Shown here piece by piece: positions 39,268 to 47,411 of a DNA stretch of 64,000 bases. Position numbers and translations under genes: made by a program. The notes under the pieces were generated by a model. The model was not told the DNA's origin. It made no database searches and saw only the letters and a list, made by a program, of their open reading frames with translations. This DNA is from Verrucomicrobiota bacterium (GTDB lineage Bacteria; Verrucomicrobiota; Verrucomicrobiia; Limisphaerales; Palsa-1400), in contig JBEKYR010000016.1 in the NCBI GenBank assembly GCA_049510745.1, positions 28,743 to 92,742 of the forward strand, given 5' to 3'. The number at the start of each line of letters is the position of its first letter. The first letter of the stretch is position 1.

Positions 39268-40638
<1,371 letters not shown>

Positions 40639-40659: not shown

Positions 40660-41301
40660 GTGCGCGTGAGGGAAACGATTGCCCATTTGATTCAATGGTA
40701 CCAGGGCGCGCTCGATTCCGGCGGCTATCCGCTGGTCGCGCTGCTGATGACGCTGGAGAGCAGCGTTCTGCCGGTGCCGAGCGAGGCGATCATCCCGCTG
40801 GCCGCCCAACGGGCGCATGCCGGCGGCCATTTGAGCCTGACGGGCGTGGTGCTGGCGGGGACACTGGGGTCGTGGGTGGGCGCGACGATCGTTTATTGGG
40901 CGGCGCGCCTGATGGGCCGTCCGCTGCTCCTGCGCTACGGGCGCTACGCGCGGGTGACGGAGGAAAAACTGCAGGCGGCGGAGCGGTGGTCGCGTCGGTT
41001 CGGCTCCTTTGGGGTGCTGGCGGGCCGGTTGCTGCCGGGGGTGCGGCAGACCATCGGCCTGCCGATGGGCATTGTCAAGATGGATTACTGGCTCTACGCG
41101 CTCTTCACCGTCATCGGCTCGGGCCTCTGGTGCGTTGTGCTGGCCTGGGTGGGCGTGGCCGCCGGCAACGACCCCAAGCTGATGGCGGGAGACGTGCGCC
41201 ATCTGACCCTCTGGCTGCTCGGCGCCTTGGCCGTCCTGGGGCTGCTCTATTATTTCCTGGTCCACCGCTACATCAAGCCCGACCCGGCGAAAGAAGTTTG
41301 A
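40660..41301 (+). CDS. DedA family membrane protein
   Basis: LESSVLPVPSE, GRLLPGVRQ, PMGI. Confidence 0.9.
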   Translation: MRVRETIAHLIQWYQGALDSGGYPLVALLMTLESSVLPVPSEAIIPLAAQRAHAGGHLSLTGVVLAGTLGSWVGATIVYWAARLMGRPLLLRYGRYARVTEEKLQAAERWSRRFGSFGVLAGRLLPGVRQTIGLPMGIVKMDYWLYALFTVIGSGLWCVVLAWVGVAAGNDPKLMAGDVRHLTLWLLGALAVLGLLYYFLVHRYIKPDPAKEV

Positions 41302-41333: not shown

Positions 41334-44300
41334 ATGACTTCGGCCGAAATCCGACAATCGTTCCTGGATTTTTTCAAATCCAAGGGGCACACCATCGTCC
41401 CTTCGTCAAGTCTAATGCCCGATTCGCCCGGTTTGCTGTTCACCAACGCCGGGATGAATCAATTCGTCCCCATCTTCCTCAACGAGCGCGCCCCCGACGT
41501 GGATAAATGGCCCGGCGCCATTGCGGGCAAGCCGACGCGCGCCGCCGACACGCAGAAGTGCATCCGCGCCGGCGGCAAACACAACGACCTGGAAGATGTC
41601 GGCCTGGACACCTATCACCACACCTTTTTCGAGATGCTCGGCAATTGGAGCTTTGGAGATTATTTCAAAAAGGAAGCGATTGATTGGGCGTGGGAACTGG
41701 TTGTAGAGAAATGGAAATTCCCGCCGCACCGCCTCTACGCCACCGTGTATAACCCCGACAAATCAAAAAACGATCCGAGCGATTTTGACCAGGATGCCTA
41801 CGGTTTTTGGGCGGCGAAGTTCAGCGCCGCCGGCCTCGACCCGAAAGTCCACGTCGTTCATGGCGGCAAGAAAGACAACTTCTGGATGATGGGCGAAACC
41901 GGCCCGTGCGGCCCCTGCTCGGAAATCCACGTCGATTTGACTCCCGCCGGCGACACCAATGGCTCGCTCGTCAACAAAGGCGACGCCCGTTGCATCGAGA
42001 TTTGGAACCTCGTCTTCATCCAATTCAACGCCAACGCGGACGGGACATTTTCGCCCCTGCCCGCCCGGCACGTCGATACGGGCATGGGCTTCGAGCGGGT
42101 GACGGGCATCATGCAGAACACGAAGAATTTCACCGACTTCATGCGCGTCATCTCCAATTACGAAACAGACATTTTCCGTCCGCTTTTCGACAAGCTGGAA
42201 AAACTGAGCGGCAAAAAATACGGCTCGACGCTGCCCGGGGAGGACACGCGCCCCCGCGTGTTGCAATCGCCGCCCCCGGCGATTGCCACCACATCCATCC
42301 CTGGCACAACCGAACCCAAGTACTCCCGCCGCAATCTCCCTCATTTCGAGCGCCCCTGGGCCAAATACATGGTCACATTTTCCACCAAAGAGCGTCGGCA
42401 ACTCACTCCGGCAGAGCGCGGAATCGTATTGGAGAGTGTTCTGTGCGCGTCCAGACAGAGGCAGTATCAGCTCTATGCTGCTTGCGTCATGCCCGACCAC
42501 GTGCATCTATTGTTCGAACCACAGATCAAGGGGGAAGATCAAGGTGGCAAGTCGATTTTCTGGTCGTTAAGCGAGATTCTGCAGGGCATCAAATCTGCAA
42601 GCTCTCACAACATAAGTAAGGCGTCGGGACGAAAGGGGCATGTTTGGGAGGCGGAATCCATGGACCGGATGATTCGGGGCGAGTCCGATTTGGAGGAGAA
42701 ATTTCACTATATTTGCCGAAATCCGTGGGATTCAGGTGTCGTCCCGCCAACGGAGGATTATCCCTGGCTATGGGTTCCTGAAATGGAAATGCCTGCTCCC
42801 GAAAACGCTGGCGAGAGACGGACTGCGGGGGCGCAGTCCGACGCACGCGAGGGCGCGTGCGCTCCCCACTCGCATTCCGAACAGATTCAAATCGACATCG
42901 CTTTCCGCGTCATCGCAGACCACATTCGCACGCTCAGCTTCTCCATCGCCGATGGAATTTTGCCGGGCAACAACGACCGCAACTACGTCTTGCGCCGCAT
43001 CCTCCGCCGCGCCGTGCGCTATGGCCGCACACTCGGTTTTCACGAACCGTTTTTCTATAAATTGGTGGAAGTCCTCGCTGAAACAATGGGGGACGTATTT
43101 CCAGAACTTCGTAATAAGCAGTCGCATGTCCAGGATGTGATAAAAGCCGAGGAGGAGGCATTCAACAAGACGTTGGATAAGGGGATCGCATTATTTGAGT
43201 CAGGAGCACAGCAGGATCAAATTAATTGGCATTGGAAACAGCTTGATGCGGCAATTAAGGAAGTTCTCAGTGACAAGTCTAGCACACCAAGAATTCTTGC
43301 TAACGACTTGAAATCTATTGCGGCAACCGGAGAACTTGTTTGGCCTGAAGTTTCAAACGTTCGCCAACTCACGAACACCTTCGGTTCACTTGAAGAGCGC
43401 GCGTTTATCAAGCGTCTTTATGAGTTTGCCAATGACTTAACTCTCGCGACAGTAACAGACGATTTTGAATCTCTACTTCCAGAGGCTGAAATTATTGAAG
43501 ACCTCGCTAGACGGATTTCAGCTTCCGCAGCCAGTGAACGAAAACAAGGCGTCGTTCCGGGCGGTTTTGCATTTACCCTTTACGACACTTACGGCTTCCC
43601 TCTCGACCTCACCGAGTTAATGGCGCGTGAACGCGGGCTGACCGTGGACACTGCAGGCTTTGAAAAACTTATGGACGAGCAGCGCGCCCGCGCCCGCGCC
43701 GCCCAGAAAAAGGAAATCGTCGCCGCCTCGAATGTTGATACGTCGCGTCCGACCGATTTCGTCGGGTTCGACCGCCTGCGCGCCGACGCCACCGTCCTGG
43801 ATGCTGTCAACATCAAGGACAAAATCGCCGTCACGCTCGACGCTTCGCCCCTCTACGCCGAGATGGGCGGACAGGTCGGCGACACCGGCGAGATTTCCGC
43901 CGGCGGAAAAATCTGGCGCATTGTCAATACTCAGAAAGTCGGCAACACCTTCCTTCATTTTCTGGCGGAGAAGGACGCCCCGGAGCCGGGCGCGAAAGTG
44001 GAGATTCGCGTGAACGTCCCGCGCCGCGCCGCCATTCAACGGCACCACTCGGTCACGCACTTGCTGCACTGGGCGTTGCACGAGGTCGTCAGCGCCGACG
44101 CCACCCAAAAAGGCTCCTACGTCGGGCCGGACAAGTTGACTTTCGATTTCAGCAGCGCGGCGCTCACGCCGGCGCAGGTCGGCGACGTGGAAAAACTGGT
44201 CAACGAACGGATTCTCGAAAACGCCGGCATCGCCTGGACCGAGGTTGCGTATGCCGAGGTCAAAGGCCGGAAGGATGTCATGCAGTTTTTCGGCGAGAAG

Positions 44301-45002
44301 TACGGCGACATCGTTCGCGTGGTGCAGATTGGCGGAAAGGCGGGCGCGTTGGACGGCTACTCGATGGAACTTTGCGGCGGCACTCACACGCGGGCGACGG
44401 GCGAGGTCGGATTATTCCGGATTCTGAGCGAGGGGGCGGTGGCGGCGGGCATCCGGCGCATCGAGGCCGTGGCCGGATTGCGCGCTTATGAAGTGTCCAA
44501 GGAAGAAGCCGCGTTGATTTCGACTGTGGCCGGGAAGGTCAATTCACCGGCGGCCGAGTTGGAAAAGAAAGTCGATTCGCTCCTGGCGCAGCAGAAGGAG
44601 TTGGAAAAACAGCTTCAGGCCATGCGCCAAAAACAGGCGGCGGAACTGGCGCGCGGTTTGGTGGCCCGCGCGGACAAATCCGGCCCGGCGCCCAGCATTG
44701 TCGAGCATCTCGGCGCGGCGGATGCGGATTTTCTGCAAGCCGTGGCCGACGCGATCAAAAGCCAGTTCAAAGGCGTGATCGTTCTCGGTGGCACAGCCGG
44801 CAACGCCGTGGCCCTGGTCGCAGCCGTCTCGCCGGAGTTCACCGCCAAGTTTCAGGCCGGGAAGATTATTCAAGCCATCGCGCCGATTGTCGGCGGCAAA
44901 GGCGGCGGCAAACCCGACAACGCCCGCGGCGGCGGCAAGGACGTGTCGAAGGTGGACGAGGCGTTGGCCAAGGCAAAAGCGTTAATTTGCCCGAATCCTT
45001 AG
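41334..45002 (+). CDS. alaS: alanine--tRNA ligase with two in-frame insertions
   Basis: FTNAGMNQF, HHTFFEMLGNWSFGDYFK, EIWNLVF, DTGMGFER, IADHIR, YVLRRILRR, LYDTYGFP, editing motifs HSVTH and CGGTH, GGKGGG. Uninterrupted 1222-aa ORF. Confidence 0.97.
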   Translation: MTSAEIRQSFLDFFKSKGHTIVPSSSLMPDSPGLLFTNAGMNQFVPIFLNERAPDVDKWPGAIAGKPTRAADTQKCIRAGGKHNDLEDVGLDTYHHTFFEMLGNWSFGDYFKKEAIDWAWELVVEKWKFPPHRLYATVYNPDKSKNDPSDFDQDAYGFWAAKFSAAGLDPKVHVVHGGKKDNFWMMGETGPCGPCSEIHVDLTPAGDTNGSLVNKGDARCIEIWNLVFIQFNANADGTFSPLPARHVDTGMGFERVTGIMQNTKNFTDFMRVISNYETDIFRPLFDKLEKLSGKKYGSTLPGEDTRPRVLQSPPPAIATTSIPGTTEPKYSRRNLPHFERPWAKYMVTFSTKERRQLTPAERGIVLESVLCASRQRQYQLYAACVMPDHVHLLFEPQIKGEDQGGKSIFWSLSEILQGIKSASSHNISKASGRKGHVWEAESMDRMIRGESDLEEKFHYICRNPWDSGVVPPTEDYPWLWVPEMEMPAPENAGERRTAGAQSDAREGACAPHSHSEQIQIDIAFRVIADHIRTLSFSIADGILPGNNDRNYVLRRILRRAVRYGRTLGFHEPFFYKLVEVLAETMGDVFPELRNKQSHVQDVIKAEEEAFNKTLDKGIALFESGAQQDQINWHWKQLDAAIKEVLSDKSSTPRILANDLKSIAATGELVWPEVSNVRQLTNTFGSLEERAFIKRLYEFANDLTLATVTDDFESLLPEAEIIEDLARRISASAASERKQGVVPGGFAFTLYDTYGFPLDLTELMARERGLTVDTAGFEKLMDEQRARARAAQKKEIVAASNVDTSRPTDFVGFDRLRADATVLDAVNIKDKIAVTLDASPLYAEMGGQVGDTGEISAGGKIWRIVNTQKVGNTFLHFLAEKDAPEPGAKVEIRVNVPRRAAIQRHHSVTHLLHWALHEVVSADATQKGSYVGPDKLTFDFSSAALTPAQVGDVEKLVNERILENAGIAWTEVAYAEVKGRKDVMQFFGEKYGDIVRVVQIGGKAGALDGYSMELCGGTHTRATGEVGLFRILSEGAVAAGIRRIEAVAGLRAYEVSKEEAALISTVAGKVNSPAAELEKKVDSLLAQQKELEKQLQAMRQKQAAELARGLVARADKSGPAPSIVEHLGAADADFLQAVADAIKSQFKGVIVLGGTAGNAVALVAAVSPEFTAKFQAGKIIQAIAPIVGGKGGGKPDNARGGGKDVSKVDEALAKAKALICPNP
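42238..42286. repeat. left end: REP-like palindrome plus hairpin
   Basis: GGGAGG-ACACGCG-CCCC-CGCGTGT-T, then a perfect 10-bp hairpin GCAATCGCCG-CCCC-CGGCGATTGC (42263-42286). Confidence 0.85.
42819..42866. repeat. right end: hairpin plus inverted REP-like palindrome
   Basis: Perfect 9-bp hairpin CGGACTGCG-GGGG-CGCAGTCCG (42819-42840), then CGCACGCG-AGGG-CGCGTGCG-CTCCC (42842-42866), whose reverse complement matches the left REP at 20/25 positions. Confidence 0.85.
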
Positions 45003-45110: not shown

Positions 45111-47108
45111 CTATTTGGATGTGGCGCGGGCGGCCTGGTCAGGCAGGCCGGCCGGGTTTCCGATCAGCGCCCTGGCCTCGCGCAACAGCGCGCGGGAGAT
45201 GATCCAATCGTGCCAGTCGCCGTTGTCAACTTCTCCCTGGTCGATCTTCGGCATTTGGGAATCCATGACTGCGACGGCTTTGTCCAGCGATGCTCGCGCC
45301 TCATCGGGCTGCTTGAGTTGGAATTGAGCCATGGCCAGGACAAGGTTGGCACTGGAGCGGATATATGGATTTTGCTGACTCGCAGGCGCCTTCAATAATT
45401 CCGTCGCGTTGGCGAAGCGGCCTTGCCGATACTCGGCCAGTCCGTCGTTCAACTGAAAATACGGAAGGTAAACATTGTCTTTTCCCTTGGTGACGGCCAG
45501 GCCGGCCAACTTCGAAACGGCGGCAAGGTCCACTCCGGAATAGGCCGTAGCCAGGCAACTCTTGGACATGCGTTCCGCAACCATCGGATCGGTCGTCCCG
45601 CCAAACCGGGTCAGTATGTTTGCGCAAAGGCGCTGGTAGGCGTCCTGGTCGTTGCATTGGACCAGCAACGTTGCGAGACGAAGGTAGTCAAGATGCTCGT
45701 CCGGTGTCAGCGCAATCACACGGGAGAAGTCTGCCGCGGCGTCTTTCCAGCGGCCGCGTCTGGCCAGAAACTGACCACGGGCGCGCAAAAGATCAGCGCT
45801 ACTGGTTTGGCTGACAACCTCGGGGGTCAGGATGGTCCCAAAGAGTTTCTCAGCGTCATCGGTTTTCTTCTCGCCAGCGAGGACGTCGGCCAGTATCTGC
45901 ACGGTTGCCGCCCAGCGGGCGGAATTGGTTTCCCAAAGTTTCTGTTCCAGCGCCAGCTCTTCGCGCAAGGCCGCCTCGGCCTCGGCCAGCTTGCCTTCGT
46001 TCCGGAACGCCTCAGCTTGCCTGTGAAGAACATCTGGTTTGTTGGTGCCCTTTTTGTAACCCTCCAGCGTCTTCTCATATTCCTGTTTGCGTCCGCCCTC
46101 CGCAAGACCGGCTGCCTGCTCTTCCACGGCTATCGCCCGGTCCTGCTTTCCTTCCATGAACAAAGCGCAGGCCAATGTATCCAGAATGTCAGGATTCTGG
46201 CTCTTGGAAGCCTCGACAGCGCGGGTGGCAATTTTTTCGGCCAGCGCCAAATCGGGTTTTTCAATCGTCACGTCGCTGACCATGGTCCAGGCCAGATCAT
46301 TCCCCAAGGCGGAGTTCTCCGGGTGCGCATCACTCAATTGGCCGGCGAGCTTGAACGCGGCCTCGTAGTCCTTTTTTCCGAGGAGCAGGTTGAAGCGCGG
46401 CTCACCCAGCTCGAACCGCTGGTCCTCCGGCGTCAACTTCTCAATCTCGTCGATTTTGGCGACGGCTTCATCCCACTTCTTTTCGTTGCGCGCGGCCCGG
46501 TAATCCTTCCAAAGCGCGCCCAAACGCGCCTGATTTTGAATCTGCCGGGCGTAATCCGCGGCGGCTTTATCGGTGTCGAACTTACCCGCCAGCACATCGT
46601 CAATGACCGACTCCTTCAATTCCATGGGATGGCCGATCCACGCGATGCGTCCATCCTTGCCGATGAGGAAGGCCGACGGAATGCCGTTGCGGCCCGCCGC
46701 CGCCATCCAAGTCTGGGACATGACCCCTTTCTCGTTGGTCTTCTTGTCATCCAAGGCGACGCGGTAAGTCATCTTGTCCCCCATCTTCTGGACGAAAGGC
46801 GCGACCAATTCATCGTCCCGCTCCCAGCAATCCTGGCCGACGACCACCAGGCCCTTGTCTTTGTATTTGACGTAAATTTCGTTCAGGTGCGGAATGGAGA
46901 CGCGGCAGGGGCCGCACCAGGTGGCCCAAAACTCGACGATGTAGGCCTTGTCAGGATCGAAGCCCGTGACCGGGTCGCCTTGAATCCATTGGCCATTTTG
47001 AATTTTTGGGGCGCGGTCACCCACTTTGACGGTGGGCTCGTCTGCGAAAAGCGCGGGGCCGGAAACCAACGCCAGCACCAACACTCCAGAAAAGATTCGT
47101 GGTTTCAT
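45111..47108 (-). CDS. secreted TlpA/redoxin-family disulfide reductase with TPR repeats
   Basis: Signal peptide; KVGDRAP, EFWATWCGPC, GIPSAFLI, WIGHP; TPR-like helices (NDLAW, ILDTLA, RGRWKDAAADF). Confidence 0.85.
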   Translation of the reverse strand: MKPRIFSGVLVLALVSGPALFADEPTVKVGDRAPKIQNGQWIQGDPVTGFDPDKAYIVEFWATWCGPCRVSIPHLNEIYVKYKDKGLVVVGQDCWERDDELVAPFVQKMGDKMTYRVALDDKKTNEKGVMSQTWMAAAGRNGIPSAFLIGKDGRIAWIGHPMELKESVIDDVLAGKFDTDKAAADYARQIQNQARLGALWKDYRAARNEKKWDEAVAKIDEIEKLTPEDQRFELGEPRFNLLLGKKDYEAAFKLAGQLSDAHPENSALGNDLAWTMVSDVTIEKPDLALAEKIATRAVEASKSQNPDILDTLACALFMEGKQDRAIAVEEQAAGLAEGGRKQEYEKTLEGYKKGTNKPDVLHRQAEAFRNEGKLAEAEAALREELALEQKLWETNSARWAATVQILADVLAGEKKTDDAEKLFGTILTPEVVSQTSSADLLRARGQFLARRGRWKDAAADFSRVIALTPDEHLDYLRLATLLVQCNDQDAYQRLCANILTRFGGTTDPMVAERMSKSCLATAYSGVDLAAVSKLAGLAVTKGKDNVYLPYFQLNDGLAEYRQGRFANATELLKAPASQQNPYIRSSANLVLAMAQFQLKQPDEARASLDKAVAVMDSQMPKIDQGEVDNGDWHDWIISRALLREARALIGNPAGLPDQAARATSK

Positions 47109-47240
47109 AGTTTTACTTGGGACTTCGCATTTGACTTCTTGCCCACCACCGGTGTGGGCCTTTTTCTTGACTTTGACCCTTCTCGACAGATTTGCAAGCC
47201 TTCTTTCCAGTCCGCCCTTGGTTGTGATCGCATCCCGGTT

Positions 47241-47411
47241 TTTAGCAGCGCCGTAGGCGCGACCTCTTTGTAGACCACCGTCGCCTCTAGAATCAGAGCC
47301 TCGTAGAGGCGACATCTGCTTTGCGGCCGCCTTGGCTATGCCGCTCCTACCGAGTTCCTATTCCATTGGATCGGGTTGATCTACAAAGATTTCGCTCCTA
47401 GCGGAGCTAAA
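47241..47411. repeat. REPIN-like element (four REP-like units forming a long inverted repeat)
   Basis: Left arm TTTAGCAGCGCCGTAGGCGCGACCTCTTTGTAGA; reverse complement of right arm TTTAGCTCCGCTAGGAGCGAAATCTTTGTAGA; inner units AGCCTCGTAGAGGCGACATCT and ATGCCGCTCCTACCGAG. Confidence 0.75.

Follow-up and report, generated by a model that had tools for sequence, protein, structure and literature searches.

We analysed a 64,000-nucleotide stretch of DNA from a Verrucomicrobiota bacterium (contig JBEKYR010000016.1; "the window" is this whole stretch). In this DNA, alaS, the gene for alanyl-tRNA synthetase (AlaRS), contains an extra segment that encodes a tyrosine transposase of the REP-associated kind (RAYT) between two inverted units of a repetitive extragenic palindrome (REP). 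The genome of the window, G000, is a draft from a peat bacterium (85 contigs, 94% complete). We compared it to 41 related genomes (G001 onward) and to database proteins (P-numbers). The features of the locus, numbered along the window, are the following.

41334 to 45002, plus strand: alaS, an unbroken open reading frame for 1222 amino acids (aa); TIGR00344 match of 813 bits (cut-off 457)
42237 to 42286, plus strand: 5' REP unit, with the tag GGGGAG (42237-42242), hairpin A (42244-42261) and hairpin B (42263-42286); translated GEDTRPRVLQSPPPAIA
42287 to 42317, plus strand: linker from the 5' REP to the RAYT core; residues 301-332 have a predicted local distance difference test score (pLDDT) under 50
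42318 to 42773, plus strand: RAYT core, aa 329-480, from profile match, 4ER8 alignment and structure model
42774 to 42818, plus strand: linker from the RAYT core to the 3' REP; residues 484-514 have pLDDT under 50
42819 to 42867, plus strand: 3' REP unit, inverted, with hairpin B' (42819-42840), hairpin A' (42842-42861) and the tag GCTCCCC (42861-42867); translated ...GAQSDAREGACAP
42868 to 42878, plus strand: remainder of the native loop (HSHS), ahead of the conserved EQIQIDIAFRV, from comparison with empty sites in relatives

The insert in alaS, its transposase core and its ends

We found that the product of alaS is a bacterial AlaRS by its match to TIGR00344, with editing and C-terminal domains; tRNA_SAD and DHHA1 were both present in a Pfam and NCBIfam profile scan. 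The insert occupies 42237-42866 in frame and adds about 210 stop-free codons between KKYGSTLP, which precedes it, and EQIQIDIAFRVIADHIR, which follows. From LP to EQ there are 214 codons, compared to five (NGSAS) in the AlaRS of G001, which is from the same genus and has 905 aa. The enzyme has 899-910 aa in most relatives. The insert lies between residues aligned to 272 and 279 of E. coli AlaRS (3HXU), where there is a six-residue loop, which we take to be the start of the tRNA-recognition part. G000 has one alaS. No second alaS was found in this 94%-complete genome; the other weak match is a 693-aa frame covering the editing region only.

The junctions here read LP/GE...AP/HS, and the junction residues differ among relatives. 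The 5' junction peptide is LP/GEDTRPR and the other is ACAPHSHSEQIQ. There is no in-frame ATG from 42237 to the RRNLPH motif and no stop in the insert; an in-frame GTG (42258) and TTG (42261) fall within the 5' hairpin. We found no Pfam intein family, no Hint domain and no conserved splice-junction residues in the insert, and no self-splicing intron or known RNA family (0 Rfam matches at E <= 1 over 41900-43300).

The insert encodes a RAYT. Taken alone, it matched Pfam Y1_Tnp with 37.2 bits (cut-off 23) and the NCBIfam family REP_Tyr_transpos (NF047646) with 83.5 bits (cut-off 80); within the whole protein the NF047646 match was 79.2 bits, slightly below the cut-off. In contrast, the IS200 model NF033573 gave 23 bits against a cut-off of 55, and the insert is thus not classed with the IS200/IS605 TnpA proteins. 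The best solved sequence relative was 4ER8, the E. coli REP-associated tyrosine transposase with REP hairpin (E 4e-4), to which the HUH and Tyr residues of the insert align at the corresponding positions. The HUH motif is H389/H391 (PDHVH, 42498-42506) and the catalytic Tyr is Tyr459 (HYICRNP, 42708-42710); the RRNLPH and DYPW termini are also present. HUH and Tyr were invariant in all 61 aligned AlaRS-RAYT proteins, as were L335, P336, H337, H389, H391, Y459, N463 and others.

We modelled AlaRS residues 1-625 using AlphaFold. RAYT residues 340-480 had pLDDT of 90-97, and the two flanking segments (301-332 and 484-514) were under 50. That is, the model predicts a RAYT domain folded with high confidence between disordered, REP-coded linkers. 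Apart from AlaRS structures, the fold that the model matched best was 4er8_A (E 1.5e-6, template modelling score 0.63 on the target), followed by the ISDra2, IS608 and IS200 transposases.

Both ends of the insert fold as two tandem hairpins. The 5' end had a folding energy of -21.9 kcal/mol (z -4.6), with none of 200 shuffles as good, and the 3' end had -26.6 kcal/mol (z -3.6), with 1 of 200 shuffles as good. Two internal stretches, folded as controls, gave z of +1.5 and +0.15. The ends form a terminal inverted repeat of 42 nucleotides (42237-42278 and 42826-42867) that is 74% complementary, and the outermost letters of the unit are GGGGAG on the left and GCTCCCC on the right. In addition, the REP flanks had 0 stops in six frames, compared to averages of 2.8 and 3.7 in shuffled sequences (fraction as low, 0.055 and 0.015).

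These ends belong to a REP family dispersed in the genome. The right-hand hairpin with its tag has 33 genome copies with no more than one mismatch, compared to 0 for a reversed-pattern control, and the 5' REP of the unit has the same tag and hairpin A as the genome-wide family. That is, the RAYT is flanked by inverted REP hairpins of a dispersed family, as is characteristic of RAYTs. Hairpin B was found with four different stems, all fully compensated, and the stem of the 3' hairpin B' is a fully compensated variant of the genomic copies. Only the two alaS copies lie deep inside a real open reading frame. A 704-aa frame on contig C31 with a REPIN (REP doublet) was considered as a second in-frame host and was rejected as a spurious GC-rich frame. 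The extragenic GCTCCCC-tagged copies are mostly within a longer conserved repeat, with recurring flanks GATGACCTATACAATTTGGATAGGAGAGCGAAGAAGC and GGGATGTACTGCAACGGTTCTTAGG (for example C1:68344-68480); therefore the mobile unit outside alaS may be larger than two hairpins.

G000 has no second copy of this RAYT clade, and its weaker RAYT-like matches differ. One free-standing RAYT lies outside the window, at G000:C20:77229-77774 (89.8 bits on NF047646). It is flanked by a classical GTAG-type REP (GGTAGGG-hairpin), different from the REP of the alaS unit. Because of this difference, we regard the alaS unit with its GCTCCCC REPs as one system and the REP and RAYT of C20 as another.

The initial annotation, made from the letters of the window, had described an unbroken alaS interrupted by a RAYT/Y1 transposase with its own REP ends, an intact HUH motif, Tyr and both termini, and neither an ATG ahead of RRNLPH nor a stop. 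All of this agrees with our results. It had placed the insert at 42238..42866, with about 210 codons; the size and the end stand, and the start has to be moved by one base to be in frame.

Assembly did not create the junctions, because contigs from independent runs cross both of them with 0 differences. The stretch occurs in 20 listed runs from 19 studies, and the bridging contigs come from peat-metagenome runs. Those from runs not flagged as a possible source are X6 records 20 and 22 and X8 records 26 and 30. X3 record 13, from a possible source run, spans 41960-43300. An empty form of the site was not convincingly seen in the contigs, which showed only the filled form. The contigs gave six joints, three of them within the insert ends (42261>42843, 42262>42847 and 42275>42843). 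These three were rejected as DNA excision: their sides are 21-25 letters at a 90% threshold, and we read them as REP cross-matches or REPINs elsewhere. The joint 42097>42894 (side 28) is probably an empty alaS of another organism and was not used as evidence of excision.

Distribution, turnover and selection

We searched the related genomes in six frames with the RAYT core, independently of gene calls. At E <= 1e-10, there were 13 matches in 10 of the 41 genomes and none in the other 31. Ten matches were in alaS, two were in priA (G016 and G036) and one, a weak match, was in a 332-aa frame. Nine of the ten copies embedded in alaS were open and in frame with the whole gene, G026 being the exception, and linkers of many lengths were all in frame. 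The same AlaRS-RAYT architecture was found in nine other genomes and in hundreds of database proteins.

The protein collection has 1717 proteins longer than 369 aa with the domain. Among the best 120 of these, 114 have the AlaRS domain PF01411, one is an AlaRS fragment, three are MetH and two are threonyl-tRNA synthetase (ThrRS). The HUH motif was kept at least once, by pattern match, in 116 of these 120, and ten of the 120 have two RAYTs. Many proteins carry a JGI pipeline name, 'alanyl-tRNA synthetase/REP element-mobilizing transposase RayT'. The 35 long representatives were AlaRS (16), RecG (5), PurH (3), PriA, PFL, DnaK, BirA and AroK (one each), methyltransferase-like proteins (3), a protein with tRNA_SAD only (1) and proteins with no other domain (2). 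The same RAYT clade is in frame in priA, recG, metH, thrS, purH, dnaK and others. The wide collection also contains free-standing relatives (46-63% identity, 227-266 aa) that start with M and have REP-like peptides on both sides; the notion that the clade is never free-standing was not upheld beyond the 41 relatives.

Several of these host proteins have features of their own. In the PriA helicase of G016:C5 (L051) and G036:C269 (L055), a same-clade RAYT lies in frame directly before the Walker A motif; that of G016 is bracketed by direct repeats of a REP-derived peptide. The cobalamin-dependent methionine synthases P0011, P0013 and P0014 (~1650 aa) have two in-frame RAYTs each. A more distant Y1/HUH domain (LPHWRQ...MPNHVH type) is in frame in a DinG-type helicase, G007:C168 (L054), and in a UDPGP-like protein, G036:C6 (L052; 1441 aa) and G039:C54 (L053; a 1414-aa frame). 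These distant domains are bracketed by repeated peptides. Some AlaRS-RAYT proteins are short although their contigs are long (P0047, P0050, P0056, P0090 and others); their tails are out of frame, through either real splits or assembly errors.

The REP type tracks the RAYT lineage. The tag is GGGGAGC with type A RAYTs, and GGGTAGC (G039) or GGGTGGC (G019) with type B. These tags are one-base variants of the GTAG guide described in the portion consulted of Corneloup et al. 2021 (PMC8266576).

We found that the RAYT comes and goes at this site among close relatives. We compared the 120 AlaRS proteins nearest to the N-terminal 300 residues of the window protein (86-96% identity), together with the window protein itself. 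At the site of the insert (site 1), 27 had a RAYT, 90 did not and 4 were unscored. Ten of the 90 RAYT-less proteins had a REP-derived peptide of 30-54 residues there. On a FastTree host tree of 113 AlaRS proteins (27 with a RAYT at site 1 and 86 without), built with the insert columns removed, the distribution needed 15 changes, and well-supported branches forced 13 of these. With shuffled labels, the mean was 24.3 changes (range 20-27).

The history of the RAYT also differs from that of its host. G008 and G019 belong to one genus, and their identity is 93.7% over the N-terminal part of the host and 52% over the RAYT. In contrast, G019 and G039, from different families, are 79.8% identical in the host part and 84% in the RAYT. 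Judged by these identities, two RAYT lineages use the same alaS site within one genus, and RAYT history disagrees with host history. A correlation of host and RAYT distances gave Mantel r 0.18, a value reached in 5 of 999 permutations; because hypervariable regions inflate the host distances, we relied on the direct identities.

The arrangement of repeats varies among the site 1 occupants. The order is REP(forward)-RAYT-REP(reverse) in G000 and in P0012, the relative nearest to it. G008, G014 and G017 have a full REPIN added 3' of the unit, and in G019, G002 and G039 the RAYT lies between direct copies of the whole REPIN. Where the site is occupied by a REPIN only, neighbours that carry the RAYT share its REP type (for example P0296 beside P0272), and the REPIN-only alleles match those of the neighbours minus the RAYT and one repeat. 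Recombination between direct repeats, or reverse integration, would give such alleles. In addition, the identity of P0019 to P0020 is 99% over the N-terminal part of the host, 100% over the RAYT and only 84% over the C-terminal part, a pattern that hints at recombination within alaS.

We estimated the ratio of nonsynonymous to synonymous substitution rates (dN/dS) of the RAYT core. For G008-G014 it was 0.151, compared to 0.157 in the N-terminal part of the host. Two older pairs, G016-G017 and G002-G017, gave 0.037 and 0.034. In four further pairs core dN was 0.10-0.27 with dS saturated. By these estimates the RAYT core is under purifying selection, and the host gene is itself conserved.

A second variable region of alaS lies outside the RAYT unit.

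43206 to 43538 (aa 625-735), plus strand: site 2, an unrelated variable insert of low GC content; third-position GC content 0.37, compared to 0.75 in flanking alaS

This insert of ~110 residues is in frame in another variable loop, is foreign in composition (GC 0.45, compared to 0.60 for the genome) and matched no Pfam family. It is common to G011, G005, G028 and G039 and is not in the congeners G001 and G002. The site 2 loop has 21-149 residues among 105 close relatives with a measurable loop. The RAYT of G036 occupies site 2, not site 1, of its alaS. The neighbourhood of alaS (39319-40638; 45111-47315) looks ordinary. From reading the translations, there is an enolase-like frame upstream of alaS, a 213-aa membrane-protein-like frame at 40660-41301 and, downstream on the minus strand, a 734-aa frame resembling tetratricopeptide repeat and thioredoxin proteins.

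Reading of the unit and its alternatives

Based on these results, we think it fairly likely that the insert is an intragenic REPtron, that is, a RAYT bounded on both sides by a pair of cognate REP hairpins, which would be translated as a domain in a loop of the essential AlaRS. The unit would be transcribed and translated as part of AlaRS, and the RAYT would form a separate domain on two disordered linkers encoded by GC-rich, stop-free REP hairpins, with host enzyme and passenger both remaining functional. The RAYT would be a nuclease acting on single-stranded copies of the ~30 extragenic REPs that share the hairpin and the GGGGAGC/GCTCCCC tag. If it works like TnpA-REP, it would recognise a hairpin with the tag 5' of it and cut a nearby dinucleotide via Tyr459. 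It probably still acts on its REPs. An essential, constitutively expressed host gene would provide both expression of the unit and shelter from imprecise deletion. The cassette would turn over at the site via its repeats, and a bare REPIN could occupy the loop; REPIN-RAYT-REPIN and bare REPIN would interconvert by recombination between direct REPIN copies. Whole alaS segments with different cassettes would be exchanged between lineages.

Several points weigh against this reading. Translation, retention in the mature enzyme and nuclease activity are all inferred from sequence. Selection on the core could partly reflect the need to fold cleanly within an essential enzyme, not catalysis. The AlphaFold model is poor at residues 1-110 (predicted template modelling score 0.48), and its placement of the RAYT relative to the active site is unreliable. 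The alaS of G026 (G026:C178, L046) does not stay in one frame: the RAYT and the C-terminal part are in a different frame from the N-terminal 300 residues. The 5' REP is absent there, as is a start codon for what lies downstream. A sequencing error, a frameshift or a split of the gene could explain this break. REP and RAYT are also only loosely linked. At E <= 1e-10, G012 (20 REP copies), G035 (20) and G022 (10) carry the REP without a RAYT of this clade. G009, in which a second REP type is commonest (55 copies), also lacks such a RAYT, and a strict dependence of the REP family on this RAYT was not upheld. Because free-standing relatives exist at 46-63% identity, the in-frame habit is not obligatory for the wider clade. 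The matches in the protein collection are gene calls, in which broken copies are under-sampled, the FastTree trees are quick ones, and related sequences and genomes are not independent.

The RAYT might be an inert passenger that no longer acts on DNA; imprecise loss would destroy the essential gene, and selection would keep foldability only. REPs in relatives without this RAYT and the presence of only ~33 REP copies in G000 fit this idea. Foldability alone, however, does not require HUH and Tyr to be invariant in 61 of 61 proteins, the flanking REP type co-varies with the RAYT lineage, and the cassette keeps turning up in new host genes, and so we consider an inert passenger unlikely. The domain might instead have been exapted, that is, recruited for a new nucleic-acid function of AlaRS and other hosts and kept for host benefit, much like the domesticated synthetase-nuclease fusion that the initial annotation offered as an alternative. 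The invariant catalytic residues and low dN/dS would suit such a role, many hosts do act on nucleic acids (AlaRS, ThrRS, PriA, RecG and DinG-like helicases), and RAYTs are regarded as domesticated, single-copy, vertically inherited genes in the part of the literature drawn on here. We find exaptation quite unlikely, since single genera contain AlaRS both with and without the RAYT (at least 13 changes on the tree of 113 close AlaRS proteins), the site is shared by different RAYT lineages, the cognate REPs are kept at the ends, and hosts such as MetH, PurH, DnaK, BirA, AroK and PFL have no common function.

It is also conceivable that the insert is lost at some step up to the maturation of the enzyme: by precise DNA excision in some cells of the population, by processing of the RNA at the hairpins, or by protein cleavage or splicing. 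HUH transposases of the IS200/IS605 group excise precisely using paired hairpin ends; the unit has such inverted ends, and its disordered linkers could be protease sites. If the insert were removed before translation, there would be no reason for linkers of such varied length to stay open and in frame, as they do in nine of ten genome copies, and such early removal is therefore unlikely. The lack of an intein domain, of conserved junction residues and of any Rfam match, and contigs with the filled form only, also argue against removal; the few joints, with 21-28-letter sides, fit REP cross-matches or other organisms. Taken as a whole, removal, including the removal via paired ends that the initial annotation had raised, seems to us very unlikely. 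Finally, an assembly or binning artefact could in principle have joined a RAYT locus to alaS, given a draft of 85 contigs and the repeated nature of REPs. The probability of this is negligible, with independent-run contigs crossing both junctions without differences and the same architecture in nine other genomes and hundreds of database proteins.

The initial annotation had itself favoured a mobile unit tolerated as a loop domain without intein splicing. This idea fits everything we tested, with translation predicted from the open frame. The sequence-based checks and refuting conditions that it had named turned out in the same direction: a relative with an empty site, Y1_Tnp domains in frame in other essential genes, no chimeric junction, no second alaS in the 94%-complete genome, and a predicted fusion structure with a folded RAYT on low-confidence linkers.

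A broader reading is quite possible, and we hold it tentatively. A whole Verrucomicrobiota RAYT clade may normally live within the frames of essential housekeeping genes, an intein-like refuge without splicing. Each REP hairpin would then have two roles, as a recognition site in DNA and as the code for a disordered linker free of stops; host promoters and ribosomes would express the transposase, and the cassette would move between REPIN-holding loops by repeat-guided exchange.

Comparison with known systems

A full-text literature search, which did not cover supplements, found no description of an in-frame RAYT. That is, the in-frame life of a RAYT unit in an essential gene was not found described in the literature searched. 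If the unit is translated as proposed, inteins would not be the only means by which selfish nucleases can shelter in essential genes. It would also indicate that the surface loops of large enzymes can accept a folded domain of 150 residues on linkers encoded by repeats, and that there is a natural route to new multidomain proteins. For annotation, host genes with an in-frame RAYT are not broken or chimeric. In addition, they mark natural permissive sites for domain insertion in AlaRS and helicases.

The IS200/IS605 TnpA proteins (IS608, ISDra2) share the HUH/Y1 fold with the RAYT in alaS, and hairpin ends and single-strand chemistry are expected by homology. The alaS unit differs in its low NF033573 score (23 bits against 55), in not being multi-copy and in having no separate transposase gene with its own signals.

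The Rickettsia palindromic elements (RPEs) lie in frame in open reading frames that probably still encode working proteins, as described in the part consulted of Di Nocera et al. 2013 (PMC3733652), where they are the only in-frame case mentioned. The likeness, one of description, is that palindromic mobile repeats are in frame and that REPIN-only occupants are found in the same AlaRS loop in relatives. In contrast to alaS, where the transposase itself is the in-frame passenger, RPEs have no transposase.

Inteins with homing endonucleases are also selfish nucleases in frame in conserved essential genes (helicases, aminoacyl-tRNA synthetases), and they too are patchy among close relatives and reuse the same site. 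Unlike an intein, the alaS unit has neither a Hint domain nor the conserved splice-junction residues (Cys/Ser, His-Asn, +1 nucleophile). The RAYT domain presumably stays in the mature enzyme, as nothing in the sequence suggests protein splicing.

The closest likeness in fold and sequence is to REPtrons, RAYT/TnpA-REP genes flanked by their own REPs (E. coli TnpA-REP, 4ER8; PMC8266576; 10.1101/2021.07.10.451892, each consulted in part). Both have the HUH motif and Tyr, with 4ER8 the nearest relative, inverted REP ends with a short tag 5' of the hairpin, one copy per genome, and a dispersed, mostly extragenic REP family. Their tags, GGAG in the alaS unit and GTAG in the classical REPtron, are one base apart. 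In the portions consulted of this literature, classical RAYTs are free-standing, extragenic, vertically inherited and congruent with the host tree, and REPINs are almost exclusively extragenic. This picture of RAYT and REPIN as extragenic, vertical genome partners contrasts with the RAYT in alaS, which has no expression signals of its own. It is single-copy, but it lies in frame in alaS with a history discordant with that of its host. The alaS unit has neither start nor stop and would be read inside an essential gene, and units of this type have been gained and lost many times among close relatives and appear in many host genes.

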